IMG/VR virus record: IMGVR_UViG_3300031994_000011
Coordinates: 1-64,000 of that record
DNA length: 64,000 bases
From: a virus
Lineage: Duplodnaviria; Caudoviricetes
Strand: one strand, 5' to 3'
A model generated the notes under the pieces. It searched no databases. It was not told the origin of the DNA and was given only the letters and a program-made list of their open reading frames with translations. Positions 19,416 through 62,288 of this stretch are shown here, one piece after another. Each line of letters starts with the position of its first letter. The first letter of the stretch is position 1. A program made the position numbers and the translations under genes.

Positions 19416-19520
19416 GGTTCTTTTCTTTTTTTTTGTTTAAACAAAGAGCTTGATTTTTTTAATAATATAACTACCTATCTTTAGATGGGTAAATTCCCAA
19501 ACAAGAATGGGGTGATATAG

Positions 19521-22500
19521 ATGATATAGGTTAAACAAAGTAATGTTAAATTTAAGTATAATGACTCTGGCAATATAAAATATAGTCCATTATTAGATTT
19601 ACTTATAGTGGACCATTAGTCAGAGTATATAGACCAAGCAAAAAATAGAATATAGGGAATTGTAAATCAAATAAATAATAATTCTTCTGTTATAAATAAT
19701 TTTTGCGATGGTTATGCCGCGGAGCAGAATTATAATGTTGGTGATTATGTATTTTATAATGGAGAATTATATTGTTGTATAAAAACTATTCAAAATAGTG
19801 GAGAAACTTTTCCTGAAGATAGTTTTAAAAAAAGCACCGTTGGAGATTAGCTATTAAAAATTAAAAATATATAGCTTGATAGAATTAAAAAAATCTTATA
19901 GTGTGAAGATTCTGAAGAAATTGTTTTAGATCCAGAAGAAGATTTTATTTCTAATAGTTATATAGAAGCTTCTTCTGGTGATGAAAAACCAATAAACAGC
20001 AGTTATTATTATTCTACTAATTTTATTGATATTAGAGACTCTTTAAAGCTTTTATATACTAGAGGAGTGAGTACAAGTAATAGTCCAACTGTAGGTATGG
20101 CTTTTTATGATAGTAATAAAATTTTTATTCCTGAGTCTGGTCAAACAATTTTGCCATCAGGTGGCTCAGTAACATAGGAATAGATTTTTGTTCCTATAAA
20201 CGCTTGTTATGCGCGTTTTAGTAGTTATAATAAAAGTGTTAAAAAAGATGAATTTAAAGTAATAAAAATAAATAAAATTGTTGATAAAATTGATAATATT
20301 AACGATAGAACCAATGGCAGAATTGATAATTTATCTAATAATTTAAGTGAAATATATTCATCTAATAAATCATATTAGGTAGGAGACTGTTGTATTAAAG
20401 ATGATAAGCTTTATCAATGTTTTAGTATGGTTGAGCAAGCTTAGAATGAAAATTGGGATAATATTAAAAATAATTTTAGGTAGATTAAAATAGATAAAGA
20501 ATTCGAAAAATTAAAGAATTTTAAAACAAAATTTTTTGATTGGAAGTTGGGACGTTATGGTAGTAGTCAAACTGAATCTGAAGGAGTTTTTCAACGAATA
20601 AATAAAGGTGGTAGTATATATGATTATTGTTTAAGGATATCATGTAAATAGGGAGATGTTTTTTTAATTAAAAAAGCCAAATCACATGATAATGTAAGAG
20701 GATATGTTTTCGCTAAAAAAGATGCTGATAATTATTATTGGACATATTTAGCAAATCCTAATTGGTGCGCGCCGAAAAATACTGAATTTACAAATTTAAT
20801 GCTTACTGCTCCAGAAGGTGCTGAATATTTATTTGTTACTTTTGGTATTTCAGAAGATAATACTTCATGGATAAATGATGACAGATATGCTACTTATTAT
20901 ATAAATCCTTTAGCATTTCAAATAATAAAAATTTTAGAGAATATTTCTTCTTAGTATAGTGAATAGAAAGTATATAATATAGATGAATATTGTTTATATA
21001 ATGGAAAATTATATAAATGTATAAATAAAGTAATTAATTCTTCTTGGAATGAAAATGATTGGATTGAAACCAAAATCAGTGATGAATTATATAATGGTAA
21101 TGATAAAACATATGTAAATAATAGATTAGCATAGATTTCTTCTATTATAAACGATGCCTAGGCATATGCGGTTGGCACTCGTAATGGTATACCAATTACT
21201 GATGAAGATGATCCAATTTATCAAAGAAGTGCTCGTGAATATGCTACAAATGCAGGTGGTAGTGCTGCTGCAGCTTATGCGCATCTTACTCAAGCAAAAG
21301 CTTGGGCAATAGGTGAAGGTGTAAATAGCACTCATCAGGCTTATAATAATAGTAGTAAATATTGGGCAAATAACGCAGCAACTTCTGCAACTAGTGCTGC
21401 AATTTCAGCACAGCAAGCATAGGCAAGCAAAACATAGGTTGAAAGTGGTATAGAAACATGGTTATATAATAATATTACACAATAGACTGGATATGTACTT
21501 GATAGTTCTTTAACAAGTCAAAATGCCGCTGCACAAGCTAGCGCAACTGGTAATGCTATAGCTAATCTATAGAGTATTATTGCTTCACCTTATGTTTCAG
21601 CAATATCATATAATGAAGGAGATTATTTTACTAATAACGGCAATTTATATCGTGTAACTTCCGATATTGCGGCGGTGGATAATGTGAATATCGATGCGGT
21701 CAATAAAATTCAGGTCACGGCTGGGGCTGAAATTGGTGACTTAAAGAGCGCCGTTACCAATTTAGATAATATTGTGGTTGGCGAAAATATACTCGACTCT
21801 GAGTTGATCAAGAGTAAAACGACAAATGCCATCACGAATAACGGGGACGGTACATATACCATCGGTACTACTGATTACGGTACGGTTATATTTGGCCGGG
21901 AAGATGCATATGTTCTCCAGCCGGGAATGTACCTTTTATATGGTGTGAGCAACGGGTTTTCATTCTTATCGACAACAGCATCTCATACTGATGCAATATT
22001 TACAAACACATCAAACGAACCAAAGTGGATCAATATTTTAACAGAAATATCAGTATATATCGGATATAGAAATAGAGCGAGGCCGTCTGCATCATATGAA
22101 ATAGCTCCATACCTGAAAAAAGAAGGAATGCAGAAGGAATTAACGGATATTATACAAAACGAATTACCGAAAATATCTGGTACGATCGAAGCGCTATCGA
22201 ATTACACTCAGAAGCAATTGGATTCCGATGATTTCATTTCCGGGTATTGGAATGCTGGCGGAACAGCATATGTCAACAAAGGGGCGACAAGAATATCGGC
22301 GAATCAGATTTACCCATTGTCCAGCGGTGATAAAATCGTTTTTTCGACGGATGAGATGTACCTTGGCATCTGGGTAAAAAAAGCAAGCGAAAACGATTAT
22401 ACGAATGTATTTCCGTATGGGCTTACGTCAGAGCAAATAGAGATCGTTTTTGATGAAGATTCGACGGTTATCATCCAGATGAAAAAATCGAACGATGGCA

Positions 22501-23741
22501 CAATCTCCCCGTCTGATTATGATGCGAATATTACGATTTATCATTGCGAAACCGGAACGCTGAAAAACTCCGTCCCGATCATTGAATCCAATACGATTGA
22601 GGTGGAGCAGATTACATCTGCCGATTTCGTAAACGGTTACTATACGTTGATTACGAATGCTTTTTCAAGTAGTAACTCGTGCATTTGTACAAAATTTATC
22701 AGGTCTGTACGCAAGGGAGATATTATTCGGTATCATTCACCGACAATTCGGCTTGGCGCTTGGGTGCTGTATGCCGGGGATACGGCAGCGACAAATATTG
22801 TTGAGTACACTACAACGGTAAACGCTCAATCTTTTGTCCTGCCCAAGGATGCGACCGAATTGCTGTTCCAATGCAAGAAAGCAACCGGCAATATTTCCCC
22901 GAGCGACATGAATGCGGATATATCTATTATCAGGGCAAAAGCAGTTCACGGCAGGGAAAAAGACAGGCTGGCGCGATATGAATTTATCAAATCCGTCAAT
23001 CATCGTGGATATCAGGAACTTGCACCGGAGAATACACTCCCTGCGTTCCGTCTTTCGGCAGAACATGGGTTTGAATGGATAGAAACGGATGTGCAGTTTA
23101 CATCCGACGATGTGCCTGTTATTCTGCACGACCGGTCGATCAACCGGACGGCAAGGAATGCGGACGGAACGAGTATTTCCAGCACAGTAAATATTGACGA
23201 TATAACATATGCACAGGCACTTGATTACGATTTTGGGATATGGTTTTCAGATGAATACGCCGGGACAAAAATTCCTACGTTTGAGCAGATGATTTGCTAC
23301 TGTAAGAATCTTGGCTTGAAGGTAAGAATAGAACTCAAAGCGGAAACGGTGACCACATCAAACATCCCTGCGTTGGTTGATATCGTCAAAAAATACGGCA
23401 TGGTGAGAAACGTTGAATGGGCATCCTTCGGACTGTCCTTGATGCAGTACATATCCACAAACTACCCGGATTTCGATCTTGGGTATATCGTATCATCGAT
23501 TACAGCAACGGTTGTGAGCAACGCGCTTGCACTAAGAACTTTAAGCAATCATGTTACGGTTGCCGCCTCCGTCAGCAATTCGGATGCGAATATCAAACTG
23601 CTGACAGACGCAGATATCCCGTTCGATGCGTGGACAATCACGAATCCGGGACAAATCATTAACGGAAATAAATATGTTTCGAGCATTACAACGAACCGTT
23701 ATAACGCGCAGGAAGTGTTGTATGGTATGTTGCCGTCATAA
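19521..23741 (+). CDS. large virion/tail protein (1406 aa) with C-terminal glycerophosphodiester phosphodiesterase (GDPD) domain
   Basis: One frame open from ATG 19521 through many TAGs into ORF 21675-23741; GDPD motifs NHRG, APENTLPAF, IETDVQFTSD, LHD, IELK. Confidence 0.85.
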
Positions 23742-23948: not shown

Positions 23949-26645
23949 ATGGCTTCAAACATCTCTGTTCCTACATATACAATTTAGCATAGTGGCGGTA
24001 AATCTTCTTGGCAAGATGGTGAGATAATTACTGCCAATTCTTTAAATAAAATGTAGAGACAAATTAAAAAAAATACAGACGGTTTTTCTAGCGTTGTACA
24101 ATATAGCACAATGCAACCCACTAATGAATATAATCAAGTATGGGTAAAAGGTGAACCATAGCAAAATAATAGAACAGTTCGTCTTGCATAGATGGACGAT
24201 GTTAATGCAGTTGATAATCGATTGCTTACATTTAAGACAGATATATAGAAATTATTATCAATAAATTAGGCCACAGAATTAAATTATAATTTTATTAACG
24301 GTAATTATGGTTTATTAGTAAAAACCGGCTCAACTAAACAAGATAGTTATTATAAAGTAACAGGATATATTGATATTTCTAATTATAAAAGAATATTATA
24401 TAGTAAATGTAAATTTTTAACTGGTAATACTATAGGTATTTGTTTTTATAATGAAAATAAAACTTTTATTCCTCCGGGAATAGCTGGTTTATCTGATACT
24501 TTAAGTGGATATATTGATGCTGATTGCGATGTTCCAGAAGGCGCGAAATATGTAAGACTTACAGCTTTAAGTTCAAATCTCTAGAATTTTTATGTAAAAG
24601 GAACTTCAATTCCAGGTGGTATATTTGATGATATACAGGAAATAAAAAATGAATTATCTTCTATTAATATTTTATTAAATAGTAAACAAGATACATTAAT
24701 ATTTGATAATGCTCCTGCATTAACAAATCATCCAGTTACTAGTCAAGGTATTAAAACAGCGATTGATTAGCAAACATCCTATTTATAGACTTTAATTGAT
24801 AGTTATACAAATAATGCTGTAAAAAATTTTGCATAGGAATATAATAATAATATGTCATATGCGCCAGGAAGCTTGGTAACTAAAAATGGAAAAATATATT
24901 TAAGCCTTCAATTTGCTGATGATTAGCATAATATTAATGATACATAGTATTGGGTGCCTATAACTATAAATGATTATTTAGAAGGCAGCTATTATGGTAA
25001 AATTTATGATATGATAAGTGATAATATTTAGAGCGCCCTTCAATATGATCTTATTCCTACAGAAGATAGTTAGAATCTATTAACTTCTGGAAGATTATAT
25101 AATGTTTTTTAGAATATTGATTCTAGATTATCACTTATTAATAGTTCATTAAATGATAAGCAAGATGAATTGACATTCGATGATGAACCAAAAAATAATA
25201 GTTTTAATCCAGTTACTAGTAATGGTATTTATGTTACAAAAAATAATATAAATAATCAAATAGAATATCTTAATAAATTATCAGAAATTTATAACAATAT
25301 ACTAGAAATTGAAAGTCCTACACAAACTAGTATTGATAGTATAAATAGAGCAATAAACTATCTTGACGGTAGTTTAGTAACAAATTCAACGTATACAGCC
25401 ACTGGTAATTTTGATATACAAAATTTTGATTATATTTATTTTAAACGTATTAAAAAAATATCAAATGATAATATACCACAAACTTTTGGTATGGCATTTT
25501 ATAATAGAAATTCTGTATACATAGAAGGTATACCAGCAGTCTTAAATCAATAGAGTTTAGGATATACTGAAATGTATTTAGCAAAAGTTCCTGCAAATGC
25601 TGTGTATGCTAGATTTACTACTTATAGTGATACAAGTACTTATGGATAGTTTGAATTAAGAGGAATACCAAAAACTTTTTTAAATCCTATCACTGAAAAT
25701 TCATCAACTATATTATCTAATTTTGCTTTATAGTATGATAGATAGGCAACATATGCGCCAGGATAGTACGTTACTTATAATAATAGTTTATGGAAATGTG
25801 AAAACTTAACTGGCAATGGATTATGGAATCAAAGTGATTGGGTTAGAGCTTCTGTAGCGGGATCACTTGAATATTAGAATAATCTTCATTCTAATATGAA
25901 TTTAGATTTATTGAATCGCATAGGTTCAGTTTCTAATTCTTTACAAGAATTTTCTGTAATAGAAAATAATAAGATAAATGATATTATTAATTTAGGGAAA
26001 GTTAAATATTGGGCTGATAACAATGATGAAACATTAAATACCAATAATTTACAAATTGTAAGAAATAATAATTATATTACAATGAATGGTTCTGATACCG
26101 AAAATTATAAATTTTCTTGTTATTCTTTTAATGACCCTATTTTCTTAATTTCTGGAGACAACAGTCGTGAAATTGGTACTTTATCTAGTCAAGATTATCC
26201 AAGAACAACTCAGCTATATAAAGATCATGAATATGCTTTTATTATTGAGTCTGTAAGTGGTTCTTTTTATCGTAATAGTACAGACTCAATTTATGATACA
26301 GCAACTTGTGTCACCGCAGTCATTTATATCTAGGGACAAGATACACCATATAGAAATGTATCAATAGAAATTAGAGATGATATCGGAGGCGGCCTTGCAT
26401 TTACATGTGCTAATAATACAAAGGCTTTAATAATTTTTAAGATTACTCATAATCAAGATGTCATATTTGATAATTATTGCTTTAGAGTTCAATTATTAGA
26501 TGTTACAAATAATTAGTTAATTAAAGAAATTTGTAGATTAAAAAGAATAGAAACAATAAATAAAAAAAATATTCAGTGGTTATATTCCTCTCTTAATGAG
26601 AACAATGGTCAACCAAAATATTCTTATAATAGAAACTTCTTATAA
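23949..26645 (+). CDS. virion/tail structural protein (~898 aa, TAG-recoded)
   Basis: AAGGAG RBS; same frame joins ORF fragments 25170 and 25896; KQDxLxFD..P....NPVTS repeats shared with the 31466 protein. Confidence 0.75.
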
Positions 26646-31209: not shown

Positions 31210-31413
31210 ATGAGATATTACGACGACGAAGAAGAATATTATGAAGAGTCTCAGCCAGAAGAAGACTCTTTTGTAGAAGAGGAATATGGCTGTGCTTTTT
31301 GCTGGGACAAAAAGAAAAATCGTGAATTTGAGCTTTATTTCTTTGATCGCGCAAATAACCTGCGCGTATGTCGTTATTGTCCAAATTGTGGCAGACAATA
31401 TGAACAAAATTAA
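31210..31413 (+). CDS. small acidic zinc-ribbon protein
   Basis: Own sigma-A promoter and terminator; CAFC...CPNCG. Confidence 0.65.
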   Translation: MRYYDDEEEYYEESQPEEDSFVEEEYGCAFCWDKKKNREFELYFFDRANNLRVCRYCPNCGRQYEQN

Positions 31414-31465
31414 CAGCAGCGGGAAACCGCTGCTTTTATTATTTAAGAAGGGAGGTTAGCAAGAT

Positions 31466-34400
31466 ATGATTAGATTAGTTCAACGTAAACTAATCCTTCC
31501 TCGTGGAGATACTGGTTCTTTTACTATACCAGTATTACCTGACTTTAATGTGGGGGATGTTGCAGTATTTGCGATTTTTAACCCGTTAAATAAAACAATT
31601 GTATTTAAAAAATAGGTTGAAATAGCAGATAATAAAATTACTATTCAATTCTCTCATAATGATACTGTTAATTTACCTGCTGGTAAATATTTATGGGACA
31701 TAAAAGCTTATCTAAACCCCGAGTATGTTGATGATAAATTAGTTAATGGAGATTAGATAGATTCTTACTATGCTAGTTATAAATTACCTGAGTGCTAGAT
31801 TAGAGAAACTGCTGATGATTATTTAATGGCAGATGACGCGCCAACTTCAACTTTATCTCCAAATCAATTAGATTTATTAAGTGCAATTTTGGTAGAATTA
31901 AGAGATGCTGTTCAGAAAAGTTAGGAAAATGTTACTCATTATCCTACTATTATAGATAACTATTGGCATATTTGGGATGCTAATACTGGAGAGTATGTTA
32001 ATACGAATGTTATGTCTGGCGGAGTGGTAGTTAAAGGAACTGGTGTTGGATCGGCAAAAACTATTGATTTTTCTTATGAAGCTGGTGGAGTTCAACATAA
32101 CGCTACTCAAACAGCCTCTGGCGCCGGGTCTTTCTCTGAAGGAATAAATACAATTGCTAGCGGTATAGGTGCTCATGCTTAGGGCAATACAAGTGAAGCT
32201 TCTGGAATTAACGCACATGCTGAAGGGTCAGGAACAAAAGCAACTAATTATGATACGCATGCTGAAGGATATTATACACAAGCAACTGGTCCATTAAGTC
32301 ATGCCGAAGGGAGCACAACCGTTGCTAGTGGTAACGATTCACATGCTGAAGGCAGTATAACTGTTGCTTCTGGCAATCATTCACATGCTGAAGGTGATAG
32401 AACAACAGCTTCTGGCGATGTATCACACGCTGAAGGTATTTTTTCAACAGCTTCCGGAAATTACTCTCACGCAGAAAATTATCAGGGTGAAGCTTCTGGA
32501 GAAAATTCTCATGCTGAAGGATATATTTCAAAAGCTACTAAAAATTCTGCTCATGCTGAAGGTTATAGAACTGAAGCAAAAGGCAATTATTCTCACTCTG
32601 AAGGTTATGAAACTGTAGTTACTGGTGAAGCGGCCCATGCTGAAGGACATCAAGCTTCTGCAAGTAAAGCTAGCGCCCACGCTGAAGGTTATCATACTCA
32701 AGCTACTAATAATAATACACATGCTTAGGGATATTTTACTGTTGCTAGTGGATTAAATTCACATGCTTAGGGAGAATTTACAAATGCTGTTGGAAAAGAT
32801 AGCCATGCTGAAGGATATTATACTTATGCTAATGGAATAAATAGCCATTCAGAAGGATACGCGACGTGGGTAAATGGAGATTATTCTCATGCTGGTGGAT
32901 ATTATACAATTGCTTCGGGTAATAATCAATATGTAAGTGGTAAATATAATATAGAAGATTTAAATAATTTATACGCTGTTATTGTTGGTATTGGTACATA
33001 TAACAATAATAGATTAAATGGTTACACGTTGGATTGGAGCGGTAATGGTTGGTATGCAGGAAAAGTGTCTGTAACTGATACTACTCCTGTACTTAATACT
33101 GATTTAACATCTAAATTATACGTAGATACAATGCTTGCCTTAAAAGCAGATATTCAAGATATACCTGATATTTCTGGCAAAGCAGATAAGGTGTCTAATG
33201 CCACAAGTGGAAACTTTGCTAGCCTTGATGCTAATGGTAATTTAATCGATAGCGGTCATAAACATTCTGATTATCTTACTGAGCATCAAGATATTAGTGG
33301 AAAACAAGATAAACTTACATTTGATGCTATACCTACACAATCAAGTAATAATCCCGTAACAAGCGGCGGAATTAAAAGTGCGCTCAGTGGCCTTGAATGG
33401 TCATTATCTGAAAGAGCTAATATGATTGATGATAGAGTCGATGATTTACAAAATGATATTGCTGGACATACAATGGATATAGCTTTGTTAGAATCTAATA
33501 TAACTAGTCTTGAAACTAATAAACAAGATAAATTAACATTTGATATTACTCCTAGAGCCTATAGCAATAATCCCGTTACTAGCGGTGGTATATATAATGC
33601 AATAACAAATATTAAAACAATGCAAATTCATATTTGCACTAATGAAGAATATAATTCTTAGACTGGTATTCCAATTATTAACTCTCCAGATACAAAAACA
33701 TTTTATTTAGTGCCTGGAGGAGAAGGAAATAATTTATATATTGAATGGGTATATATTAATAATACATGGGAACAATTTGGTAGCGCAACTATAGATTTAA
33801 GTGATTATGCTATAAAAAATGAAATACCTGAAATGATATTTGCCCCTCAGCCACTTATCGTAACTGTTCTTAATGGAGAACGAGCGATTAGATATAATAC
33901 TGGTGAATTATATAATAGTTCTGCTTATAACGCTAGTGATTATGTTGATTTGTCTGGTATATATGCTATTCGTTATAAACGTACAAAAACAACCGCTTCG
34001 TCTTCTGCTATTGGAATTGCATTTTATGATACTTCAAAAACTTATGCTAATTCTGGAGTACAAGTAGTTCTTAATTAGAAAGCTTTTGGTTATGCTGGAT
34101 TCTATGATGTTATTGTACCAGAAGGTGCAGCATATGTACGATTTACAATGATTGCTGATACATAGACTTATGGTGATTTTGAAGCGTATGGGTTAAGAAA
34201 AACTCTTACATTTGATAATACACCAACTGCTAATAGTACAAATCCAGTTACTAGTGGTGGCGTATATAGGGCTATTACAAATATAAAAACAATGGGTATA
34301 CATATTTGTACAAGTTAGGAATATAATTCATAGACGGGTATTCCAACAGTAGCCTCCCCCGATACTAAAACATTCTATCTTGTTCCTGGTGGAGAAGGAA

Positions 34401-37327
34401 GTAATTTATATATTGAATGGGTTTATGTTAATAATGCTTGGTAGCAATTTGGTAGCGCGACTATAGATTTAAGCGGCTATGCGCTATTGTCTGATATTCC
34501 TTCAAATGTAAGTGAATTTACAAATGATGCTGGATATCTTACTTAGCATCAAGATATTTCAGGTAAGGCAGATAAATCAGATACAGTTCTTAATACTACA
34601 TTATCTAGAGGAAGAAAAGCTAATACCACTATTGGAGAAGGTTCTTTTGCTTTTGGAATAGATACAACAGCAAGTGGAGCATATTCACATGCATAGGGAA
34701 ATAACACATCGGCTGCCAGAGACTATTCACATGCAGAAGGCTTTAATACAAAAGCTCATGGATATTATTCTCATGCAGAGGGTCATGGCTCAATAGCATC
34801 TAATACTTGTTCTCATGCTGAGGGCTCCGGCACAATAGCATCTGCTATTTGTTCTCATGCTGAAGGCTAGAGTACAACAGCTAGTGAAGCCGGTTCACAT
34901 GCTGAAGGTACAAATACAGTAGCTTCTGGTAATTATTCTCATGCTGAAGGTGGAAGTACAGTAGCATCTGGATTGGTATCACATGCAGAAGGTGGCACCA
35001 CAACAGCATCTGGAGACGGCTCTCATGCAGAAGGTACATATACAGTAGCTTCTGGAGTTTGCTCACATGCTGAAGGAACGAATACAGTAGCAACTGGTTA
35101 TATACAACATGTTAGTGGAAAATATAATATTTAGGATTTAAATAATAAGTATGCTGAAATTGTTGGTATTGGTACATATGATAACGCTAGAGCTAATGGC
35201 CGCACATTAGATTGGAATGGTAACGCATAGTATGCTGGTAAAGTAAGTGTTGGAAATACCATTCCTACAAAAAATAATGATTTAACTTCAAAAGCCTACG
35301 TTGATTCTGTAGTTCCAACAAATGTGTCCGATCTGTCGAATGACGTTGGATACATTACAGATGAAGATTTTATTCCCGAACAGCTTACGGCGATGGTTTC
35401 AGCAGAAGAGAAATTTATCGCGTATACAACAGGTAGCACAAATACAGCATCTTACTACAATGCGTCTGAGTTTGTAGATGTTTCGGATTGGTATGCCATA
35501 AGGTATAAACGTGCAAAGTCAACCGTGTCAACAACTACGGTCGGCATGGCATTTTACGATGATACGCAAACCTTTATCCCTGATTCTGGTGTGCAGAATG
35601 TCATCGGTGACGCTGTTGGTTATGCCGGGATGTATGATGTTATCGTTCCACAGGGCGCAAAGTATGCGCGGTTTTCTATCCTGTCCGACACAGCAACATA
35701 TGGGATATTTGAACTGTATGGCATTAGTCGGGAAGTGTACGAACTTGGATTGAAAGTTGATAAGGTCGTTGGTGCTGTCTCCGGTAATTTCGCCGCACTT
35801 GATTCAAACGGAAATCTGGCTGATAGTGGGGTAAAGGCAAGCGACTATTTGACAAAAGCTGAATATACGATTGATTCGTCTCTTGATTCACTGTCGGATA
35901 ATCCGGTAAAAAACAAAACCATAACTGCAGAAACACAGGGAATCCGAAGTGTTATTCTTTCTGGTTATGCTCCTGCTGAGTCACCGGCATTTGAATCAGG
36001 CAACTGGAAAACTTCGGACGGTTCGTCCGGTACGAATCCAAAGCGCATTCGTCAAACAAAGGCAACTCAGATAAATTCGCTTAATTATTATATTCGTGCT
36101 GAAGATGGTGTGCTTATTGTTCCATACTATTATAATGGTGATACATTTATCGGGTATGGACCAGAATGGCGGTCTGAATATTATGTTGCTGTTGATGCTT
36201 TAACTGGAGCTACCGGATTTAGACTGCTTGTAAGAACAGACCCGGAAGTTGATCTATCCGAATCGGTGCAGGAAACCGTGGCAAAGGTACATTTTTATCG
36301 TGAAAACAAGATTGATAAAGTAAGTGGTGCGACCGCTGGAAATTTTGCTGCTCTTGATGCGAGTGGAAGTTTAATAGATAGCGGGAACAAAGCAAGCGAT
36401 TTTGTAACGGATGTACAAGTCAATGGAACAAGTGTGTTGAACAATGGTATAGCTAATATACCTAAAGCTTCTTCTTCTGGCTTCGGTGTAATAAAAGCTG
36501 GCGGAGCTTTAAGGTCTGGGGCTGAAATTACCGGCGGAAATGCTGATGTAATGTACGTTCAATCAACAACAATAAATGGAACAAGATTAGGTACATCTGA
36601 CACTTTTCCTATTACTCCATCTGTTGAACATTCTGCCACATTTTACGGCCTTGCCAAAGCCGCAGGGGACGCCACACAGGCCACTTCAGAAAATGCCGTG
36701 GGTACATATACGGATGACGCAAAAGCATCAATCAGGACGATGCTCGGAGCAGTCGGAAATGCGAATTATGCGACATCATCAACTGGTGGCGTAGTAAAAA
36801 TAGATATAGCTAATGGATTATATATTAGTCCTGCCGGACAACTATATGTCAATCGTGCAAATGATGCACAAGTTAAAACGTCCTCTTCTGATACAAGAGC
36901 AATTACGCCAACCATTCAACATTCTTCTACTTTCTATGGACTGGCTAAAGCGGCGGGAGATACTACGCAATCAAGTTCAAGCAACGCTGTAGGAAGTTAT
37001 ACAACAGAAGCAAAAGCAGCAATACAAACAATGTTAGGAGTTGAATCTGGCGTATCTTTCGTAGAAACCATTTCTGGTACAGATGTTACTATTCCTGGTA
37101 TTCCAAATACTAGATATGTTTGTGGTGAGGTTAGCACAATTTCTATTACTCCACCATCTGCAGGAACCATCATTGTTCGCTTTACTAGCGGAACTACGGC
37201 AGCAGTATTAACATTACCTTCTACAGTTAAAATGCCCGACTGGTGGAATGGCGTTTCTACTAATTATATCTATTAGATTTGTATTTAGGATGGTGTGTAT
37301 GGGAGCGTGATGGCATGGCCAGTTTAA
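31466..37327 (+). CDS. giant tail fibre/adhesin (~1953 aa, TAG-recoded) with two blocks of 14-aa SHAEG (YadA-head-like) repeats
   Basis: GGAGG RBS; same frame as ORF fragments 33029, 33710 and 35324; repeat blocks ~32120-32920 and ~34640-35100; internal duplications. Confidence 0.8.
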
Positions 37328-45650: not shown

Positions 45651-45998
45651 ATGAAAAACATTTTTATTTATGTAGATTATCTTAAAACCGATTATAGTTT
45701 TTCTAATGTAATCGCGCGCCATCTTAATCTATTAAATAATAATGAAACAATTGATGAAGTTTATATCGCACGCTCGTATAATAAAGCTATTGAATTACTT
45801 GAAACTTATAAAGGTGACAATATAATTATAGATTTAAGCTATAATCTATGTGAAGAAAAAACTGGGCTTGATATTTGTAAATACATTACAAAATTTAAAA
45901 TCCCAATATTATTCTTTCATATTCATTCGGTTGATTTAGAAAAACGTTTTGAAATGAGAGAAGAACTATCACAAAATGGATATAAGGAGTTTTCTTAA
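45651..45998 (+). CDS. cyclic-phosphate-processing receiver-like domain protein (possibly degenerate)
   Basis: IYVD...ARSYNKAIELL...IDLSYNL.EEKTGLDI...HIHS pattern. Confidence 0.5.
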   Translation: MKNIFIYVDYLKTDYSFSNVIARHLNLLNNNETIDEVYIARSYNKAIELLETYKGDNIIIDLSYNLCEEKTGLDICKYITKFKIPILFFHIHSVDLEKRFEMREELSQNGYKEFS

Positions 45999-46588
45999 TG
46001 TATAATATTTATTTTACTTCAGACCTACATTTTGGGCATGATAAAGATTTTATGTATGTTCCTCGTGGCTTTTCTTTTATTGAGGAACACGATAACGCAA
46101 TTATTAAAAATTGGAATGAAACCGTGCGGCCGCAAGATTATGTATATATTTTAGGAGATTTAGTCCTTGGCGATTTAGATAAGGGACTAGAAAAATTAAA
46201 TAAACTTAATGGCGCAAAATATATGATTCGTGGCAATCATGACACAGAAAATAAACTTGATAGATATTACATTGAAACCGATATTATGCCTATGGAAAGC
46301 GATGAATATACACTAGCATCTACTTTTCAAATTGGAAAATGGAATTTTTATCTAAGTCATTATCCAGTATGCTTGAATGATTATCGTTGTGCTTCTAGTA
46401 GTAGGAAATGGTGCCTTTGCGGGCATAGTCATACTAAAAATAAATGGCAGGATATTGAAAGATGTAGCTATCATGTAGAATTAGATTGCCATGATAATAG
46501 ACCCGTCTCTCTTGATGAAATTAAAAAAGATATAAATTGGTTTAAAGCATTATCCGACGAAGAAAAAATTAAACTCATAAATAATTGA
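45998..46588 (+). CDS. calcineurin-like metallophosphoesterase
   Basis: SDLHFGH, LGD, GNHD, SHYP, GHSH. Confidence 0.9.
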   Translation: MYNIYFTSDLHFGHDKDFMYVPRGFSFIEEHDNAIIKNWNETVRPQDYVYILGDLVLGDLDKGLEKLNKLNGAKYMIRGNHDTENKLDRYYIETDIMPMESDEYTLASTFQIGKWNFYLSHYPVCLNDYRCASSSRKWCLCGHSHTKNKWQDIERCSYHVELDCHDNRPVSLDEIKKDINWFKALSDEEKIKLINN

Positions 46589-47015: not shown

Positions 47016-47663
47016 ATGAGAAAGTACGAAAAAATTGAAACTATCTATGCTCGGGATACTCAAGGAACGAAGAAACTGATTCCTGGTGAGTTTAGAGATG
47101 AAACTATTCATTCGCTTGCTAATATTAGGTGGATTTGGACTGAAAAAGTAGATGGCACGAATATTCGCATTTATTGGGATGGACATAAAATCAGTTTTGG
47201 TGGTCGGACTGACTCAGCAATGATTCCTAGTCCTCTCATGAATCGGCTTAATGAACTATTTGGCGGTACAGTAAATGAGGAAGTATTTGAACAAATCTTT
47301 GGTGAAAAAGAAGTGATTCTTTTTGGCGAAGGTTATGGTAACAAAATTCAAAAAGTTGGAAAAGACTACTTGCCCGATAGTGTAAACTTTATTTTGTTTG
47401 ATGTACTTATTGGAGATAACTATCAGCCTAGAGGAACTGTTGAAAAAATCGCGGCAGCTTTTAATGTTCCTGTTGTTCCTATTGTTGGATATGGTACTCT
47501 ATATGATGCAATCAGTTATGTAGAGGCCAATCCTAAGTCTATTGTGGCGCAAGAACGTTGTAGCATGGAAGGTATTGTATGCAGGCCTGAAATGGAATTG
47601 CGCGATAGGTGCGGCAATAGGATTATCGTAAAAATTAAGTGGGAAGATTTTAAAACAATTTAA
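47016..47663 (+). CDS. Rnl2-like RNA ligase (adenylation domain)
   Basis: TEKVDGTN, LFGEGYG, FILFDV, EGIVCRP, IVKIK. Confidence 0.85.
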   Translation: MRKYEKIETIYARDTQGTKKLIPGEFRDETIHSLANIRWIWTEKVDGTNIRIYWDGHKISFGGRTDSAMIPSPLMNRLNELFGGTVNEEVFEQIFGEKEVILFGEGYGNKIQKVGKDYLPDSVNFILFDVLIGDNYQPRGTVEKIAAAFNVPVVPIVGYGTLYDAISYVEANPKSIVAQERCSMEGIVCRPEMELRDRCGNRIIVKIKWEDFKTI

Positions 47664-48978: not shown

Positions 48979-50517
48979 ATGAATGAACTTTTAAAGGCTC
49001 TTAAAGAAAATTTCAACACTACTCTTACTGAAAATGGCGCGACCACATATAAGTCTACACTTGATAGTGTATATGATATGTTCGCGCTGGGTGGCGCGTA
49101 TCGTGAACGCTCTGATGAAGATGTTATTATGCTTTTTAAAAAGGCATATCAGCAAGATCCTACGCTTGCTATGAAGTGTCTATTTTATCTTCGTGATGTA
49201 ACCGAAGGCCAAGGAGAAAGACGCTTTTTTAGAGTTATCATTAACTGGTTGGCGCGCACAATGCCAGAAGAAGCACTTAATTTCCTAAAGCAAATTCCAG
49301 AATATGGAAGATTTGATGACTTGTATTCACTTATTGGTGCTTCTATTGATGAGGATGTATTTCGTTTTATTAAATCTCAGTTAATTGCTGACCTACATAC
49401 TGATACACCTTCTCTACTTGCTAAGTGGCTAAAGTCAGAAAATGCTTCTTCTCCAGAAACTAAAAAGCTTGCTACAGAAACTAGGAAGCATCTAGGTCTT
49501 ACTTCTGCTCAGTATCGTCATATGCTTTCTATGCTTCGTAATAGAATAAAAATCGTTGAGACTCTTATGTCTCAAAATCGTTGGACTGAAATTGAATTTG
49601 ATAAAATTCCTAGCCGTGCTGGATTTATTTATCGTAAGGCATTTGCTCGTAATGAACTTATTGGCGATAAGTATGCCGAATTTATGAGTAAACCTAATAC
49701 TACGGTAAATGCGAGAACTCTTTATCCTTATGAAGTCGTTGAAAAAGCAGCTAAGCTAGCCAATGGTGGATGGGGTAGTCTTCCTTCTATTGATGATGTA
49801 GAAAGAATTACTATAAATAAATATTGGGACAATCTTACCGATTATTTCAATGGTGCTACTCTTAACGCACTTGCTGTGGTAGATACATCTGGCTCTATGT
49901 GGGGACAACCCATTAACGTAGCTATTTCTCTTGGCCTATATTGTGCGGATAAGGCAAATGGACCTTTTAAGAATCATTTTATTTCCTTTAGCCGCAATCC
50001 TAAACTAATTGAAACCGTAGGTGTAGATTTCTGTGATAAAGTTAATAGAATTTATCAGCAAAATTTGTGTGAAAATACTAACATTGAAAAAACTTTTGAT
50101 TTAATTCTAAATATCGCAAGAAAAAATAATTTATCACAAAAAGAACTACCTGAGTCTCTTATTATAATTAGCGATATGGAATTTGATGCAGCAATCAGTA
50201 ACTATGATTATTATAGAGAATCTAATGGGAATAGCAGCCTAATAGAGAATATTGAAAGAAAATGGAACGCGTTCGGATATAAAATGCCGAAACTGGTTTT
50301 TTGGAATGTTAATGCGCGCCATGATAATATTCCTATGAAAGAAAGAAATGGTATTACTTTTATATCTGGTTGTTCTCCTGTAATTTTTGATATGATTATG
50401 TCGGGAAAAACTGCTAAAGAACTCATGCTAGATAAACTACTATCTGATAGGTATGCTAAAATCTTTTCTGTAACTGATCATAAATATTTGCTATATAAAA
50501 ATCTTATAAATACTTGA
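48979..50517 (+). CDS. DUF2828-family (TROVE/Ro60-like + vWA) protein
   Basis: TENGA, LFYLRDV..GQGER, EYGRFDD, AKW, VVDTSGSM (MIDAS), ISDMEFD, VFWNV. Confidence 0.85.
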   Translation: MNELLKALKENFNTTLTENGATTYKSTLDSVYDMFALGGAYRERSDEDVIMLFKKAYQQDPTLAMKCLFYLRDVTEGQGERRFFRVIINWLARTMPEEALNFLKQIPEYGRFDDLYSLIGASIDEDVFRFIKSQLIADLHTDTPSLLAKWLKSENASSPETKKLATETRKHLGLTSAQYRHMLSMLRNRIKIVETLMSQNRWTEIEFDKIPSRAGFIYRKAFARNELIGDKYAEFMSKPNTTVNARTLYPYEVVEKAAKLANGGWGSLPSIDDVERITINKYWDNLTDYFNGATLNALAVVDTSGSMWGQPINVAISLGLYCADKANGPFKNHFISFSRNPKLIETVGVDFCDKVNRIYQQNLCENTNIEKTFDLILNIARKNNLSQKELPESLIIISDMEFDAAISNYDYYRESNGNSSLIENIERKWNAFGYKMPKLVFWNVNARHDNIPMKERNGITFISGCSPVIFDMIMSGKTAKELMLDKLLSDRYAKIFSVTDHKYLLYKNLINT

Positions 50518-50542
50518 CTTTCTTTTAAATTTATAGTATAAT
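50514..50542 (+). promoter_or_regulatory. sigma-A promoter driving the suppressor-tRNA operon
   Basis: TTGACT-N17-TATAAT. Confidence 0.85.
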
Positions 50543-50569
50543 AAAACAGTAAGGGGAGAAATCCCTTAT

Positions 50570-50642
50570 GGCGGTATCTTCTAGTGGTCTAGGAAAACGG
50601 TCTCTAAAACCGATAACCCGGGTCCGAATCCCGGTACCGCTA
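50570..50642 (+). tRNA. amber-decoding tRNA (CUA) with tRNA-Glu-type body
   Basis: GGCGGTA/TACCGCT acceptor, TTCT/GGAA D-stem, ACGGT-CTCTAAA-ACCGA (CTA at 50604-50606), 4-nt TAAC variable loop. Confidence 0.92.
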
Positions 50643-50646
50643 CTCT

Positions 50647-50756
50647 TAAGAGATGGCTGAATGGTTAAGGCAGCCTACCGAAGAGTAGGCGTAGGACGTT
50701 CGATTCGTCTTTAGGTTGAGGTAAACCATAGTGGGTTCGATTCCCACTTCTCTTAA
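50647..50756 (+). ncRNA. tRNA-like RNA with non-canonical anticodon loop and a second T-arm
   Basis: Ser/Leu-type D-arm; GACG-TTCGATT-CGTC plus GTGGG-TTCGATT-CCCAC. Confidence 0.6.
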
Positions 50757-50759
50757 TAT

Positions 50760-50900
50760 TGGGGTGTAGCCAAATGGTAAGGCAACGGACTTATCAGGAT
50801 AGCATAACGCAATGCGCTCCGGCAGGAGAGAAGCGTGGGTCATAACCAGCTCCTGATGCAATGACTCCGTGATTTGCTGGTCCGATTCCAGCCACCCCAG
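50760..50900 (+). tRNA. tRNA-Gln(UUG) interrupted by a 69-nt tRNA-like insert (50793-50861)
   Basis: Removing the insert gives ACGGA-CTTTGAC-TCCGT with U1-A72. Confidence 0.85.
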
Positions 50901-50923
50901 CTATTTTATTATTGGAGGCTAAT

Positions 50924-51364
50924 ATGCGTCAAATTATTATTGTTCGTAAAGATTTGAATATGAATTCCGGTAAACTTGCGGCACAGGTGGCGCATGCTTC
51001 CTTGGCTTTTATTTCTAATGCTATTCGTAATTGCGTAGAATGTTCAAGTTTAAGTCAAAATTATCTTATAAGTTTGAAAATTCCAAAAGATGTATACGAA
51101 CAGTGGTTCTGTGGAATATTTACTAAGACCGTTTGTGAAGCCAAAAATCACAGACAAATAATGAAAGCTATATCTATTGCCGAAGAGATTGGTCTTAAAG
51201 AAGGCACAGATTTTTTTCTCATTAAAGATGCTTGCCTTACAGATCTAGAACCAGAAGAAATCGATGAAAATGGGCAAGGCCGTACTCTTACTTGTATTGG
51301 TTTCAGGCCTCTTGACGATGAGACAGCTTGGAAAATTTCTAAAAAATTTCAACTGTATCACTGA
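50924..51364 (+). CDS. pth2: peptidyl-tRNA hydrolase, Pth2 family
   Basis: QIIIVRKDLNMNSGKLAAQVAHAS, IKDACLT, TLTCIGFRP. Confidence 0.9.
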   Translation: MRQIIIVRKDLNMNSGKLAAQVAHASLAFISNAIRNCVECSSLSQNYLISLKIPKDVYEQWFCGIFTKTVCEAKNHRQIMKAISIAEEIGLKEGTDFFLIKDACLTDLEPEEIDENGQGRTLTCIGFRPLDDETAWKISKKFQLYH

Positions 51365-55950: not shown

Positions 55951-55951
55951 T

Positions 55952-56099
55952 GCGCCATTAGCTCAGTTGGTAGAGCACGTGACTTTGGGGCGGTAGTGTA
56001 AAGAACACGCTAGGAAAGCAAGGGCCTAGAAAATGAAGGGCGGTACTAAGACGCCCCGCCATAATCACGGCGTCCGCGGTTCAATTCCGCGATGGCGCA
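55952..56099 (+). tRNA. tRNA-Lys(UUU) interrupted by a 75-nt tRNA-like insert (55987-56061)
   Basis: Removing the insert gives CGTGA-CTTTTAA-TCACG. Confidence 0.85.
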
Positions 56100-56192
56100 T
56101 AAGTAAAATTTAAAAGTTAATTTCTTGACTTTAAGTAAAAATTCTGCTATAATATTTATGTAAGCAAGAGAGAAAGGATTGGAGGAAAGAGT

Positions 56193-56466: not shown

Positions 56467-57720
56467 TTGGCGAAAGCCAAGACGAACGCCATAAGTCTTT
56501 AAAGTTTTCAGTCTTTCTAAAAACTGGCGGCAGTCCTAAAGCATATGGACATTAAATAAATAGCTTGACCAACCATTTTAGGTCAGATAAAATGGTGCGC
56601 TACACTTCGGAAATGGGAAGTGGGGATAAGTAAAGACCAGATTGAGATACACGTTGGGTGGTAAGTCCTATATAGGCCGTAATTCCAAGTACGTGGGCCG
56701 CCTCAAAACAAGAAGCGAATGGGTAAAATTGAGATGAGTCGTCTTAACTGCTTCACGCGCAAACTGAATGGTGCCGCATAGCCAGATTGCTCGGCGCGTA
56801 ATAAAAGAAGAGCAAAATAAGTGCTTTGTAATGAACGATAAAGTTGGTATGAAACGTTCCAGCCATTACAACCGCACATCGTTCGCGGTATATTAAGTAA
56901 GCGGTCTCGGCAAGCAGGGGCAAACTGCTGCAACTCTGGTAGGCAGGCAGAGTAACTGGATACAGACCCAGTATAAAAAGGTGCCGCGCTTATAAGCCGC
57001 AAGTTCGCAATAGCTTATACAGTTGCCCACTCTGTAAAAGGAGGCGCGCTGATAGACCGCAAGTATAAATAGTCTATTGCCACTAAGCCAAAGTGGGATA
57101 TAAATGAGAGCGGTAGACATCCTAACAAGAATGTTACGACGTATAGGACAAGGCTCCATCTAAATAGATGGGAAGCGCTATATAATAAGGTGCCCAAATG
57201 ACTACTAGGCAGTTTGAACTGCTAGCAGAGATGTACACTCTGATAAAAGTAAGAATGGGTTAAATGGAGTTTGAAGAACAGCCAATTGCAGAAAATGCTG
57301 TATAGTCATATCACCGAATGAAAGTTTAAGCGACATGTAATGTCGTCGGCTATGACGAGCGCAAACTGAAAGGGTTATGTACTATACCCATATTGCTCGG
57401 CGCAGTATAAAAAGGAGCAAAATAATGTACTACTAGTCAGCGGGTAAAGTGGAAATGAGTCGTTTCCACGACTAGTCACGGCTGAAAAACGGGATGGAAG
57501 GAAAATAATGGGTGAAGTCCTTACTGATTGTTAACAAATTAGAAAAGCGGCAGAGATGCCCTCCGCACCCGTCATACTATGTAGGCCAAAATGCGACCGC
57601 TGTAAACGGTTAGGGTGAAAACGAACCCTTGACAATGAATGTAGGAACAGCATTCTGACGCAGTGTGAGTGGATGAAATTTCCCTCCCCAGGAGGCGCGC
57701 CCTGGGTTATCAAAACACCC
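56467..57720 (+). ncRNA. large structured non-coding RNA candidate (GOLLD/ROOL-like context) with internal duplicated domain
   Basis: 1.25 kb with no plus-strand ORF, raised GC, many hairpins, flanked by tRNAs. Confidence 0.6.
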
Positions 57721-57724
57721 ATAT

Positions 57725-57795
57725 GCTCTGATAGTGTAGTGGAAAGCACGCTCCGGTTTGACGGGGAAGGATTGGTTCGAGTCCAATGAAGAGCA
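57725..57795 (+). tRNA. tRNA-like gene, anticodon indeterminate (6-nt loop GTTTGA)
   Basis: Good D- and T-arms; imperfect acceptor stem. Confidence 0.55.
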
Positions 57796-57945
57796 AACAG
57801 TTGACACGTATCTGTATAAAAAATGTGAGAGATAAAGCTGATGAAAGGCAAACATAGAAATTAAAAATTCGTTGTTATTATTGTTGGCGCAATAATAACT
57901 AGTCAGCGGCATCTCGTTGTTCCGGTGCGCCAACACTGGAATTAT

Positions 57946-60814: not shown

Positions 60815-60932
60815 GCCAGATTAGCTCAATTGGTAGAGCAATCGCCTTGCGGAAATACTAGAAATAGTCAGTGCAATTCTGATGTTTCCGACTATAAGCG
60901 ATAGGCTTTCGGTTCAAGTCCGGAATCTGGCT
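60815..60932 (+). tRNA. tRNA-Thr(UGU) interrupted by a 45-nt mini-tRNA insert (60850-60894)
   Basis: Removing the insert gives ATCGC-CTTGTAA-GCGAT. Confidence 0.85.
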
Positions 60933-61681: not shown

Positions 61682-62100
61682 TCTAATATTTGACTTCTTT
61701 TTAAAATTATAATATAATAATTATATAAGAAAGAGAGGAGAGAATAAAATGAAAGTTATTTTCTTGAACAAAAAGGAAAAAGAAACTCTTATTAAATTAT
61801 TAGCTCCACTAATTATAACACCAGGATGTTCATATGAATTAACAACTATTTTAGAAAAACTAGATTGGAAAACATATGAATTAGTTTTTAAACATCCTGA
61901 ATTATTTGACAATAAATAAAAATTATATTATAATTATTATGTAAGGCGAGAACAGCAAAACTTTAATAGAACAAATCTTTAGTGAATAGATTCCTTCTTT
62001 AATATCGCCTTGTTTATAAGTTATTTAGGAGCTTTGATACGGTATTAAGCTTAATACTCGCCGCAGACTGCAGTGAACAAATCCTAAATAACTATTTTAT

Positions 62101-62232
62101 GCGGATATGGTGGAATAGGCAGACACCTCAGACAGCAGGTGCGCAGTCGTTACAATTGGGGCAGCACCAATACCTGCTACCATTAAAATCTGATGTCCTC
62201 TGGACGTGCCGGTTCGAGTCCGGCTATCCGCA
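62101..62232 (+). tRNA. tRNA-Leu(UAA) interrupted by a 49-nt mini-tRNA insert (62134-62182)
   Basis: Removing the insert gives TCAGA-CTTAAAA-TCTGA; long variable arm; A73. Confidence 0.88.
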
Positions 62233-62288
62233 TTTAAGGGATTTATCCCTAATTAAATAATAGGCCGAAAGGCCAAGGAGAAAAAATT

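Follow-up and report, generated by a model that had tools for sequence, protein, structure and literature searches.

A CUA tRNA with a tRNA-Glu-type body and the apparent reading of TAG as glutamate in a 172-kb phage genome

Which amino acid does a phage insert at TAG when it carries its own tRNA with the anticodon CUA? This question is raised by a locus in the IMG/VR virus record IMGVR_UViG_3300031994_000011 (Duplodnaviria; Caudoviricetes). The stretch analyzed here (positions 1 to 64,000 of the record, hereafter the window) comprises the initial 64 kb of a phage genome that consists of one contig of 171,958 bp (GC content 34%) and is classed in IMG/VR as having direct terminal repeats and as 100% complete. 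ARAGORN and the Rfam model RF00005 agree on a 73-nucleotide tRNA with the anticodon CUA at 50570-50642 (+), which scores 55.3 bits against a family cut-off of 29 and is the sole CUA tRNA of the complete 172-kb genome. An earlier note on this DNA had proposed that this tRNA is built on a tRNA-Glu body and makes TAG a glutamate codon. Among phages with a code unlike that of their host, only TAG-to-Gln and TGA-to-Trp reassignments have been observed (Borges et al., bioRxiv 10.1101/2021.08.26.457843), and later surveys take code 15 as given. Full-text literature searches yielded no phage for which TAG=Glu has been reported; relative to the reported phage TAG=Gln, a TAG=Glu suppressor together with its recoding would be new. 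The analysis presented below leads us to consider that 50570-50642 probably encodes a functional amber suppressor tRNA inserting glutamate at UAG, charged by the host glutamyl-tRNA synthetase (GluRS) and left unamidated.

The amino acid at TAG codons

Reading through TAG raises the number of residues in open reading frames (ORFs) of at least 200 amino acids from 17,388 to 41,570 and lengthens the longest ORF from 802 to 6,244 amino acids, the analyzed ORF set containing 740 in-frame TAG codons. All ORFs of the query phage, with TAG written as X, were compared by tblastn with a complete relative of 181 kb (G006), which uses the standard code, contains an ORF of 5,160 amino acids and has no suppressor tRNA. 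This comparison aligned 429 TAG sites to a residue, among which E occurs at 181, D at 43, N at 30, K at 28 and Q at 28; at the 176 sites with conserved flanks the corresponding counts are 119 for E, 17 for D and 9 for Q (68% Glu, 5% Gln). With a substitution table built from the same alignments, Glu is favored over Gln by 225 nats at all sites and by 230–250 nats at conserved ones. The substitution profile of TAG (E 0.42, D 0.10, Q 0.065, K 0.065) is essentially that of the true Glu codons GAA/GAG (0.51, 0.10, 0.049 and 0.064, respectively). As a control, the identical pipeline was applied to two sister phages, G003 and G004, and returned Gln for both with a margin of more than 115 nats; alignment of in-frame TAG with Gln, the hallmark of code 15, is found in these two phages and not in the query. 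Analysis of codon usage reveals that TAG makes up 2.8% of the codons in TAG-rich genes and occupies about a third of all Glu positions there, and that Glu codons amount to 5.6% in TAG-rich vs. 7.4% in TAG-free genes, without any drop in Gln codons.

Two protein families were examined at the level of single residues. For PhoH, 101 full-length homologues, encoded on contigs of Logan assemblies, were collected from a library of 1.8 billion proteins: TAG347 falls on the Walker-B glutamate, which is E in 101 of the 101 sequences, and the aligned residue is E in 97 of them for TAG41 and E or D in 95 for TAG43. In the alignment of the portal protein with relatives drawn from IMG/VR, query TAG columns are E in 22–23 of 23 relatives at several sites. 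Homology thus indicates that the query phage reads TAG as Glu. The corresponding proposal of the earlier note is upheld by the alignment with G006, the likelihood comparison and the PhoH homologues, all of which are independent of arguments based on motifs.

It could be argued that 50570-50642 is an ordinary code-15 suppressor, charged with or converted to Gln, all the more as the published phage TAG reassignments are all to Gln (Borges et al., bioRxiv 10.1101/2021.08.26.457843), most relatives of the query phage read TAG as Gln, and the CUA anticodon has C34 and U35 in common with tRNA-Gln(CUG). Gln is nevertheless found at only 5–6.5% of TAG sites, the same rate as for true Glu codons, Glu being favored by more than 225 nats; TAG occupies the invariant catalytic Glu of PhoH, and the tRNA has neither U1-A72 nor G73. 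We regard this explanation as extremely unlikely.

The distribution of codes among the portal-region loci places the query within a family of mixed reading: six loci use the standard code, most read TAG as Gln, and TAG=Glu is found for the query and for one further locus (L021). The latter lies on contig G001, whose end overlaps that of a 37-kb contig of the same sample (G011) by 109 nucleotides with 100% identity; this indicates that the two contigs represent one phage, called phage B in the following. Phage B shares approximately 70% nucleotide identity with the query. Its TAG sites correspond to E at 52 of 180 positions and, when only conserved sites are considered, at 29 of 52, on which basis phage B is likewise read as translating TAG as Glu. 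A sister relationship of the two TAG=Glu phages was neither confirmed nor rejected by the portal tree.

The CUA tRNA and the type of its body

A promoter of the consensus sigma-70/sigma-A type (TTGACT-17-TATAAT) is located at 50514..50542 (+), and the CUA tRNA, described in the earlier note as the first product of this promoter, follows 27 nucleotides downstream. The acceptor stem GGCGGUA/UACCGCU opens with the pair G1.U72 and leads to the discriminator base A73, with no CCA encoded at the 3' end. Positions 8 and 9 are U and C, the D-stem consists of U10-A25, U11-A24, C12-G23 and U13.G22, and the 9-nucleotide D-loop (AGUGGUCUA) carries two additional bases after G18G19 (20a and 20b by analogy). 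An A27.A43 mismatch is found at the top of the anticodon stem, whose loop reads CU-CUA-AA. The 4-nucleotide variable loop UAAC has one position absent (47, by analogy with E. coli tRNA-Glu), and the T-loop UCCGAAU (50625-50631) has C55 in place of U55. Every feature that had been claimed for this tRNA, namely G1.U72, U11:A24, U13.G22, A46 and a 4-nucleotide variable loop without nucleotide 47, is thus present, A46 and 47 being assigned by analogy. At position 55 of tRNAs, U (as pseudouridine) is nearly universal; T-loops of the sequence UCCGAAU or UCCGAUU with C55 are also seen in the tRNA-Gly and tRNA-Gln of the query phage and in some metagenomic tRNA-Glu. ARAGORN labels the gene tRNA-Pyl, as it does any tRNA with a CUA anticodon; this label was rejected in view of the Glu-type body and of the alignment of TAG to Glu, pyl genes not having been searched for.

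Phage B contains a homologous CUA tRNA at L079:5556-5627. The acceptor stem, positions 8–9, the D-stem, the variable loop and A73 are identical in the two tRNAs, while two anticodon-stem and two T-stem pairs are changed on both sides. In the alignment of these two sequences 97.6% of the helix cells are paired, compared with 40–57% when the partner is slid. The four compensatory pairs, together with the identity of the parts that bear identity elements, argue for a tRNA that is selected and functional. This evidence bears on the proposal that TAG is decoded by another tRNA, from the host or encoded elsewhere, the CUA tRNA being a relic or a decoy. Such a situation has some precedent in G003, which reads TAG as Gln and in which no recognizable CUA tRNA was found, and the A27.A43 mismatch and C55 would suit it. 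On the other hand, the gene scores 55 bits on the Rfam tRNA model and lies behind a consensus promoter, the compensatory changes point to purifying selection on the fold, and in each of the four phages with a suppressor its type agrees with the code, so that we consider a relic or decoy very improbable. The four include two TAG=Gln relatives, G004 and G005, whose CUA tRNAs (L061:1158-1243 and L062:1547-1631; 85–86 nucleotides) were overlooked by the Rfam tRNA model; they have U11:A24, a conserved variable region of 20 nucleotides and the combination U1-A72/G73.

Several comparisons bear on the isotype of the tRNA body. An exact scan of metagenomes for the D-arm recovered 23 tRNAs, 16 of which are tRNA-Glu (UUC or CUC); several of these tRNA-Glu have G1.U72, A73 and the UAAC loop in common with the suppressor, and even its C55. 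The two suppressors of the query and phage B served to build a covariance model (R1), which was searched in 101 genomes of Pseudomonadota; its best 33 loci comprise approximately 24 tRNA-Glu(CUC/UUC) and 8 Glu-like tRNA-Gln(CUG). Members of the latter class have a Glu-like D-arm and a 4-nucleotide variable loop but also U1-A72, G73 and a 7-nucleotide D-loop, and are read as being of the transamidation type. The core elements of the CUA tRNA therefore mark a GluRS-type body that is common to this tRNA-Gln class as well. Since the elements of the D-arm and variable loop alone cannot separate Glu from Gln under transamidation, it is the 1-72 pair, base 73 and the D-loop that carry the argument. 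Within the phage family, all six tRNA-Glu genes (from G002–G006) have G1.U72 and A73, whereas the tRNA-Gln genes all have G73 and, except for one with A1-U72, all have U1-A72. Judged from these genes, the acceptor end and the D-loop of the CUA tRNA match tRNA-Glu and not tRNA-Gln. When the suppressor was compared pairwise with 93 tRNAs from related phages, the identity values pointed to no clear parent tRNA. The query phage is without a tRNA-Glu(UUC/CUC) gene, and each of five relatives with tRNA arrays has one; the suppressor may fill the role of such a gene or derive from it.

A related CUA tRNA was encountered at L064:7769-7836 (-) in G012, a viral contig of 429 kb (a megaphage, GC 24.5%). 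It shows G1.U72, A73, an identical anticodon arm and UAAC loop and a reduced D-arm, and a predicted tRNA(UUA) with an intron lies next to it. No evident TAG recoding is seen in this megaphage, whose coding density is low at 190–270 kb under every single-stop code tried.

Charging by the host and the proposed fate of the aminoacyl-tRNA

Six-frame searches of the query genome and of four complete relatives detected neither the class-Ic synthetase domain PF00749 nor an RF-1 domain. The earlier note had left room for a phage synthetase encoded outside the window and had called for a search of the rest of the genome; the terminal-repeat-complete genome contains no PF00749 domain, hence no GluRS or glutaminyl-tRNA synthetase (GlnRS), which refutes that alternative; a release factor encoded by the phage was rejected as well, there being no RF-1 domain. 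It follows that a host enzyme must charge the CUA tRNA. Attempts to trace the host gave, in a GyrA scan of genome contigs, only a 32% match to a metagenome-assembled genome of Legionellales and, with NrdD in a protein atlas, viral clusters only. Shine-Dalgarno cores precede 38% of crude ORF starts compared with a background of 8%; taken with the consensus sigma-70-type promoters, they would argue against a host from the Bacteroidota and favor one that is Bacillota-like or similar.

The identity set for glutamate in E. coli consists of U34, U35, C36, A37, U11-A24, U13-G22:A46 and a missing nucleotide 47 (PMC9976931), in agreement with the elements that the earlier note had ascribed to GluRS. 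The CUA tRNA possesses U11-A24 and, with A46 and 47 assigned by analogy, the U13-G22..A46 triple and the gap at 47. The anticodon loop, C34 U35 A36 A37, retains only U35 and A37 of the four determinants located there, C34 being present in natural tRNA-Glu(CUC), and the weak determinants G1-C72 and U2-A71 are replaced by G1.U72 and G2-C71. As to glutaminylation, the elements recognized by GlnRS are the 1-72 and 3-70 pairs, the discriminator, the 10-25 pair, U35 and G36 (PMC9976931). U35 alone is shared with the E. coli-type substrate set (U1-A72, G73, G3-C70, G10-C25, U35, G36), the CUA tRNA having G1.U72, A73, C3-G70, U10-A25 and A36 at the other positions. The bacterial amidotransferase GatCAB selects U1-A72 and rejects tRNA-Glu through an extra D-loop base, U20B (PMC2811023); the role assigned to U1-A72 in the earlier note accords with this. 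The CUA tRNA has G1.U72 instead and two extra bases after GG in the D-loop, features foreign to a GatCAB substrate, whereas the phage's own tRNA-Gln has no supernumerary D-loop base.

From these features the following mechanism can be proposed. The host-type sigma-70/sigma-A promoter would drive the CUA tRNA together with other tRNAs. The host GluRS would most likely charge the former by recognizing a core of the tRNA-Glu type (U11:A24, U13.G22..A46, the missing nucleotide 47, U35 and A37). Lacking U1-A72 and carrying extra D-loop bases, which are the discriminators used by GatCAB, the product would stay Glu-tRNA, and the lack of G73, G3-C70 and G10, elements of E. coli GlnRS, would keep it off the GlnRS route. 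A route by way of a non-discriminating GluRS, the product of which escapes GatCAB, is plausible, and the most economical mechanism would be one in which the tRNA, once charged by the host GluRS, is barred from GatCAB or GlnRS.

Several points weigh against this interpretation. Two strong determinants of E. coli GluRS, U34 and C36, are replaced by C34 and A36; the main element of B. subtilis GluRS is a modified U34, and amber suppressors tend toward charging by GlnRS through U35 (both PMC9976931). The discrimination by GatCAB was tested for U1-A72 vs. G1-C72 and not for G.U (PMC2811023), and G1.U72 is a weak pair, like U1-A72. The R1 model scores tRNA-Gln(CUG) and tRNA-Glu almost equally (65.9 and 67.2 bits). 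To these have to be added the A27.A43 mismatch and C55.

The untried G.U pair leaves room for ambiguous decoding, in which a non-discriminating GluRS charges the tRNA and GatCAB, partly accepting the weak G1.U72, amidates a fraction of it, so that a mixture of Glu and Gln is inserted; the single extra D-loop base of the phage B suppressor would also fit this model. We consider it unlikely, given that a Gln in place of the catalytic Glu residues encoded by TAG would inactivate the protein and that Gln is not in excess in the TAG profile relative to that of true Glu codons. Moreover, all tRNA-Glu(UUC) genes of the phage family use G1.U72, from which it follows that the pair must allow faithful Glu decoding in these hosts. 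Another factor, either a phage protein of an unrecognized family or a host enzyme re-targeted by the phage, might be responsible for charging, as might be suspected from the two strong GluRS determinants lost through C34 and A36 and from the many ORFs of the genome without a family match. Set against this, the five complete genomes of the family are devoid of a class-Ic synthetase domain in six-frame searches, and the Glu-type core and acceptor end are kept in both TAG=Glu phages, as expected for recognition by GluRS; we therefore hold charging by a factor other than a canonical host GluRS to be improbable.

Charging by GluRS may also be extended to the family as a whole, where one stop codon appears to have been captured for two amino acids. 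In this tentative scheme, which we think possible but somewhat doubtful, a non-discriminating host GluRS would attach Glu to suppressors of both kinds, and the host amidotransferase would then set the meaning of TAG from the first acceptor pair and the D-loop, U1-A72 leading to Gln and G1.U72 with extra D-loop bases leading to Glu. On this scheme, TAG=Glu would be a new genetic code of viruses, natural in origin and dependent for its identity on a few nucleotides of the tRNA.

Genomic setting and comparison with known systems

All tRNAs of the query phage are located in the window, between 45357 and 62233. Downstream of the suppressor, a putative class-II-like tRNA element with an insert (50648..50755, +) remains below the Rfam cut-off (24.7 bits vs. 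29) and was detected by ARAGORN with introns allowed, which calls it Lys(CUU) with an intron; its insert of 27–34 nucleotides holds a T-arm-like hairpin of its own. It is followed by a tRNA-Gln(UUG) at 50760..50900 (+; Rfam 50.3 bits, ARAGORN -i) with an anticodon-loop insert of 69–72 nucleotides; the earlier note mentions neither this insert nor the weak element before it. The claim that the tRNA-Gln of the phage has U1-A72 holds for this gene, which has G73 as well and offers a contrast to the suppressor within the same genome. Directly after the tRNA cluster comes a gene for a PTH2-type peptidyl-tRNA hydrolase (50912..51364, +; Pfam PF01981, E 1e-20), a link of which to recoding can only be inferred. 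Examples of client genes within the window, all on the + strand, are a tail-fibre-like ORF of 1418 amino acids with 21 in-frame TAG (19485..23741), an ORF of 898 amino acids with 23 (23949..26645) and one of 2028 amino acids with 22 (31241..37327). Beyond the window, giant ORFs of 6,244 amino acids (117298-136032, -; 195 TAG) and 2,545 amino acids (107772-115409, -; 96 TAG) were found, approximately 3% of the codons of both being TAG.

The motif TTGACT..TTTTAAAWTT....TATAAT, of the TTGAC-N18-TATAAT class, occurs at 14 sites from 2720 to 61934, all on the + strand, where 0.17 are expected by chance, and looks like a class of host-sigma-dependent phage promoters. Inserts of 45–75 nucleotides in the anticodon loop are present in four tRNA genes (50760-50900, 55951-56100, 60815-60932 and 62100-62233) and are too short to be group I introns. 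Genes for an RNA ligase and a metallophosphoesterase (45998-46588 and 47016-47663) lie a few kb upstream of the insert-bearing tRNAs, and these proteins and inserts may reflect protein-dependent splicing or repair of tRNAs. The tRNA region also includes a DUF3800-I RNA motif at 57281-57386 (Rfam 57.3 bits, cut-off 44.2) and a tRNA-like gene at 57724-57796 (Rfam 32.4 bits), for which ARAGORN gives only a two-base anticodon (tt). No megablast match among GenBank phages was obtained for the window from 45 to 64 kb.

For a reading of TAG as Glu, the suppressor provides a concrete and testable molecular basis. Gene callers and annotation pipelines use code 15 for recoded phages, by which a TAG=Glu phage would be mistranslated at about 740 sites, catalytic glutamates included. 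Among the sister phages TAG has its standard meaning or is read as Gln or as Glu, which amounts to a natural experiment on the limits that tRNA identity elements and the indirect Gln pathway set to codon capture and on the latitude they leave for it. An amber suppressor that is by nature specific for Glu and bypasses the routes to Gln could also serve nonsense suppression work.

The code-15 phages (crAss-like, Lak and others) resemble the query in having a phage-borne tRNA(CUA), with TAG in frame mainly in late and structural genes (Borges et al.), and in having no cognate phage synthetase, so that charging depends on the host (Borges et al.; PMC9523058). They differ in that TAG is Gln and the suppressor has U1-A72/G73, whereas in the query TAG aligns to Glu and the suppressor has a Glu-type body with G1.U72/A73. 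E. coli tRNA-Glu shares with the latter U11:A24, U13.G22..A46, the missing nucleotide 47, U35, A37 and a 9-nucleotide D-loop with extra bases after G19, but has U34, C36, G1-C72, U2-A71 and G10-C25 where the suppressor has CUA, G1.U72, G2-C71 and U10-A25. The Glu-like tRNA-Gln of organisms with a non-discriminating GluRS and GatCAB is alike in the type of D-stem, the 4-nucleotide variable loop and a near-equal model score (65.9 bits), and is distinguished by U1-A72, G73 and a 7-nucleotide D-loop in place of G1.U72, A73 and a 9-nucleotide D-loop.

Outside phages, the nuclear code of peritrich ciliates (NCBI table 30) assigns TAA and TAG to Glu by means of suppressors derived from tRNA-Glu, and to our knowledge TAG/TAA=Glu is found in peritrich ciliates only. 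That code is eukaryotic and nuclear and includes both codons, whereas the query is a phage in which TAG alone is concerned, in part of the genes and in a host that presumably uses the standard code. Finally, the tRNA-Glu(CUA) engineered in E. coli by Normanly, Kleina, Abelson and Miller (1990) reportedly led for the most part to insertion of Gln by way of GlnRS. The phage tRNA likewise combines a tRNA-Glu body with the CUA anticodon, but it has U10, C3-G70, A73 and G1.U72, by which the elements recognized by GlnRS are removed.

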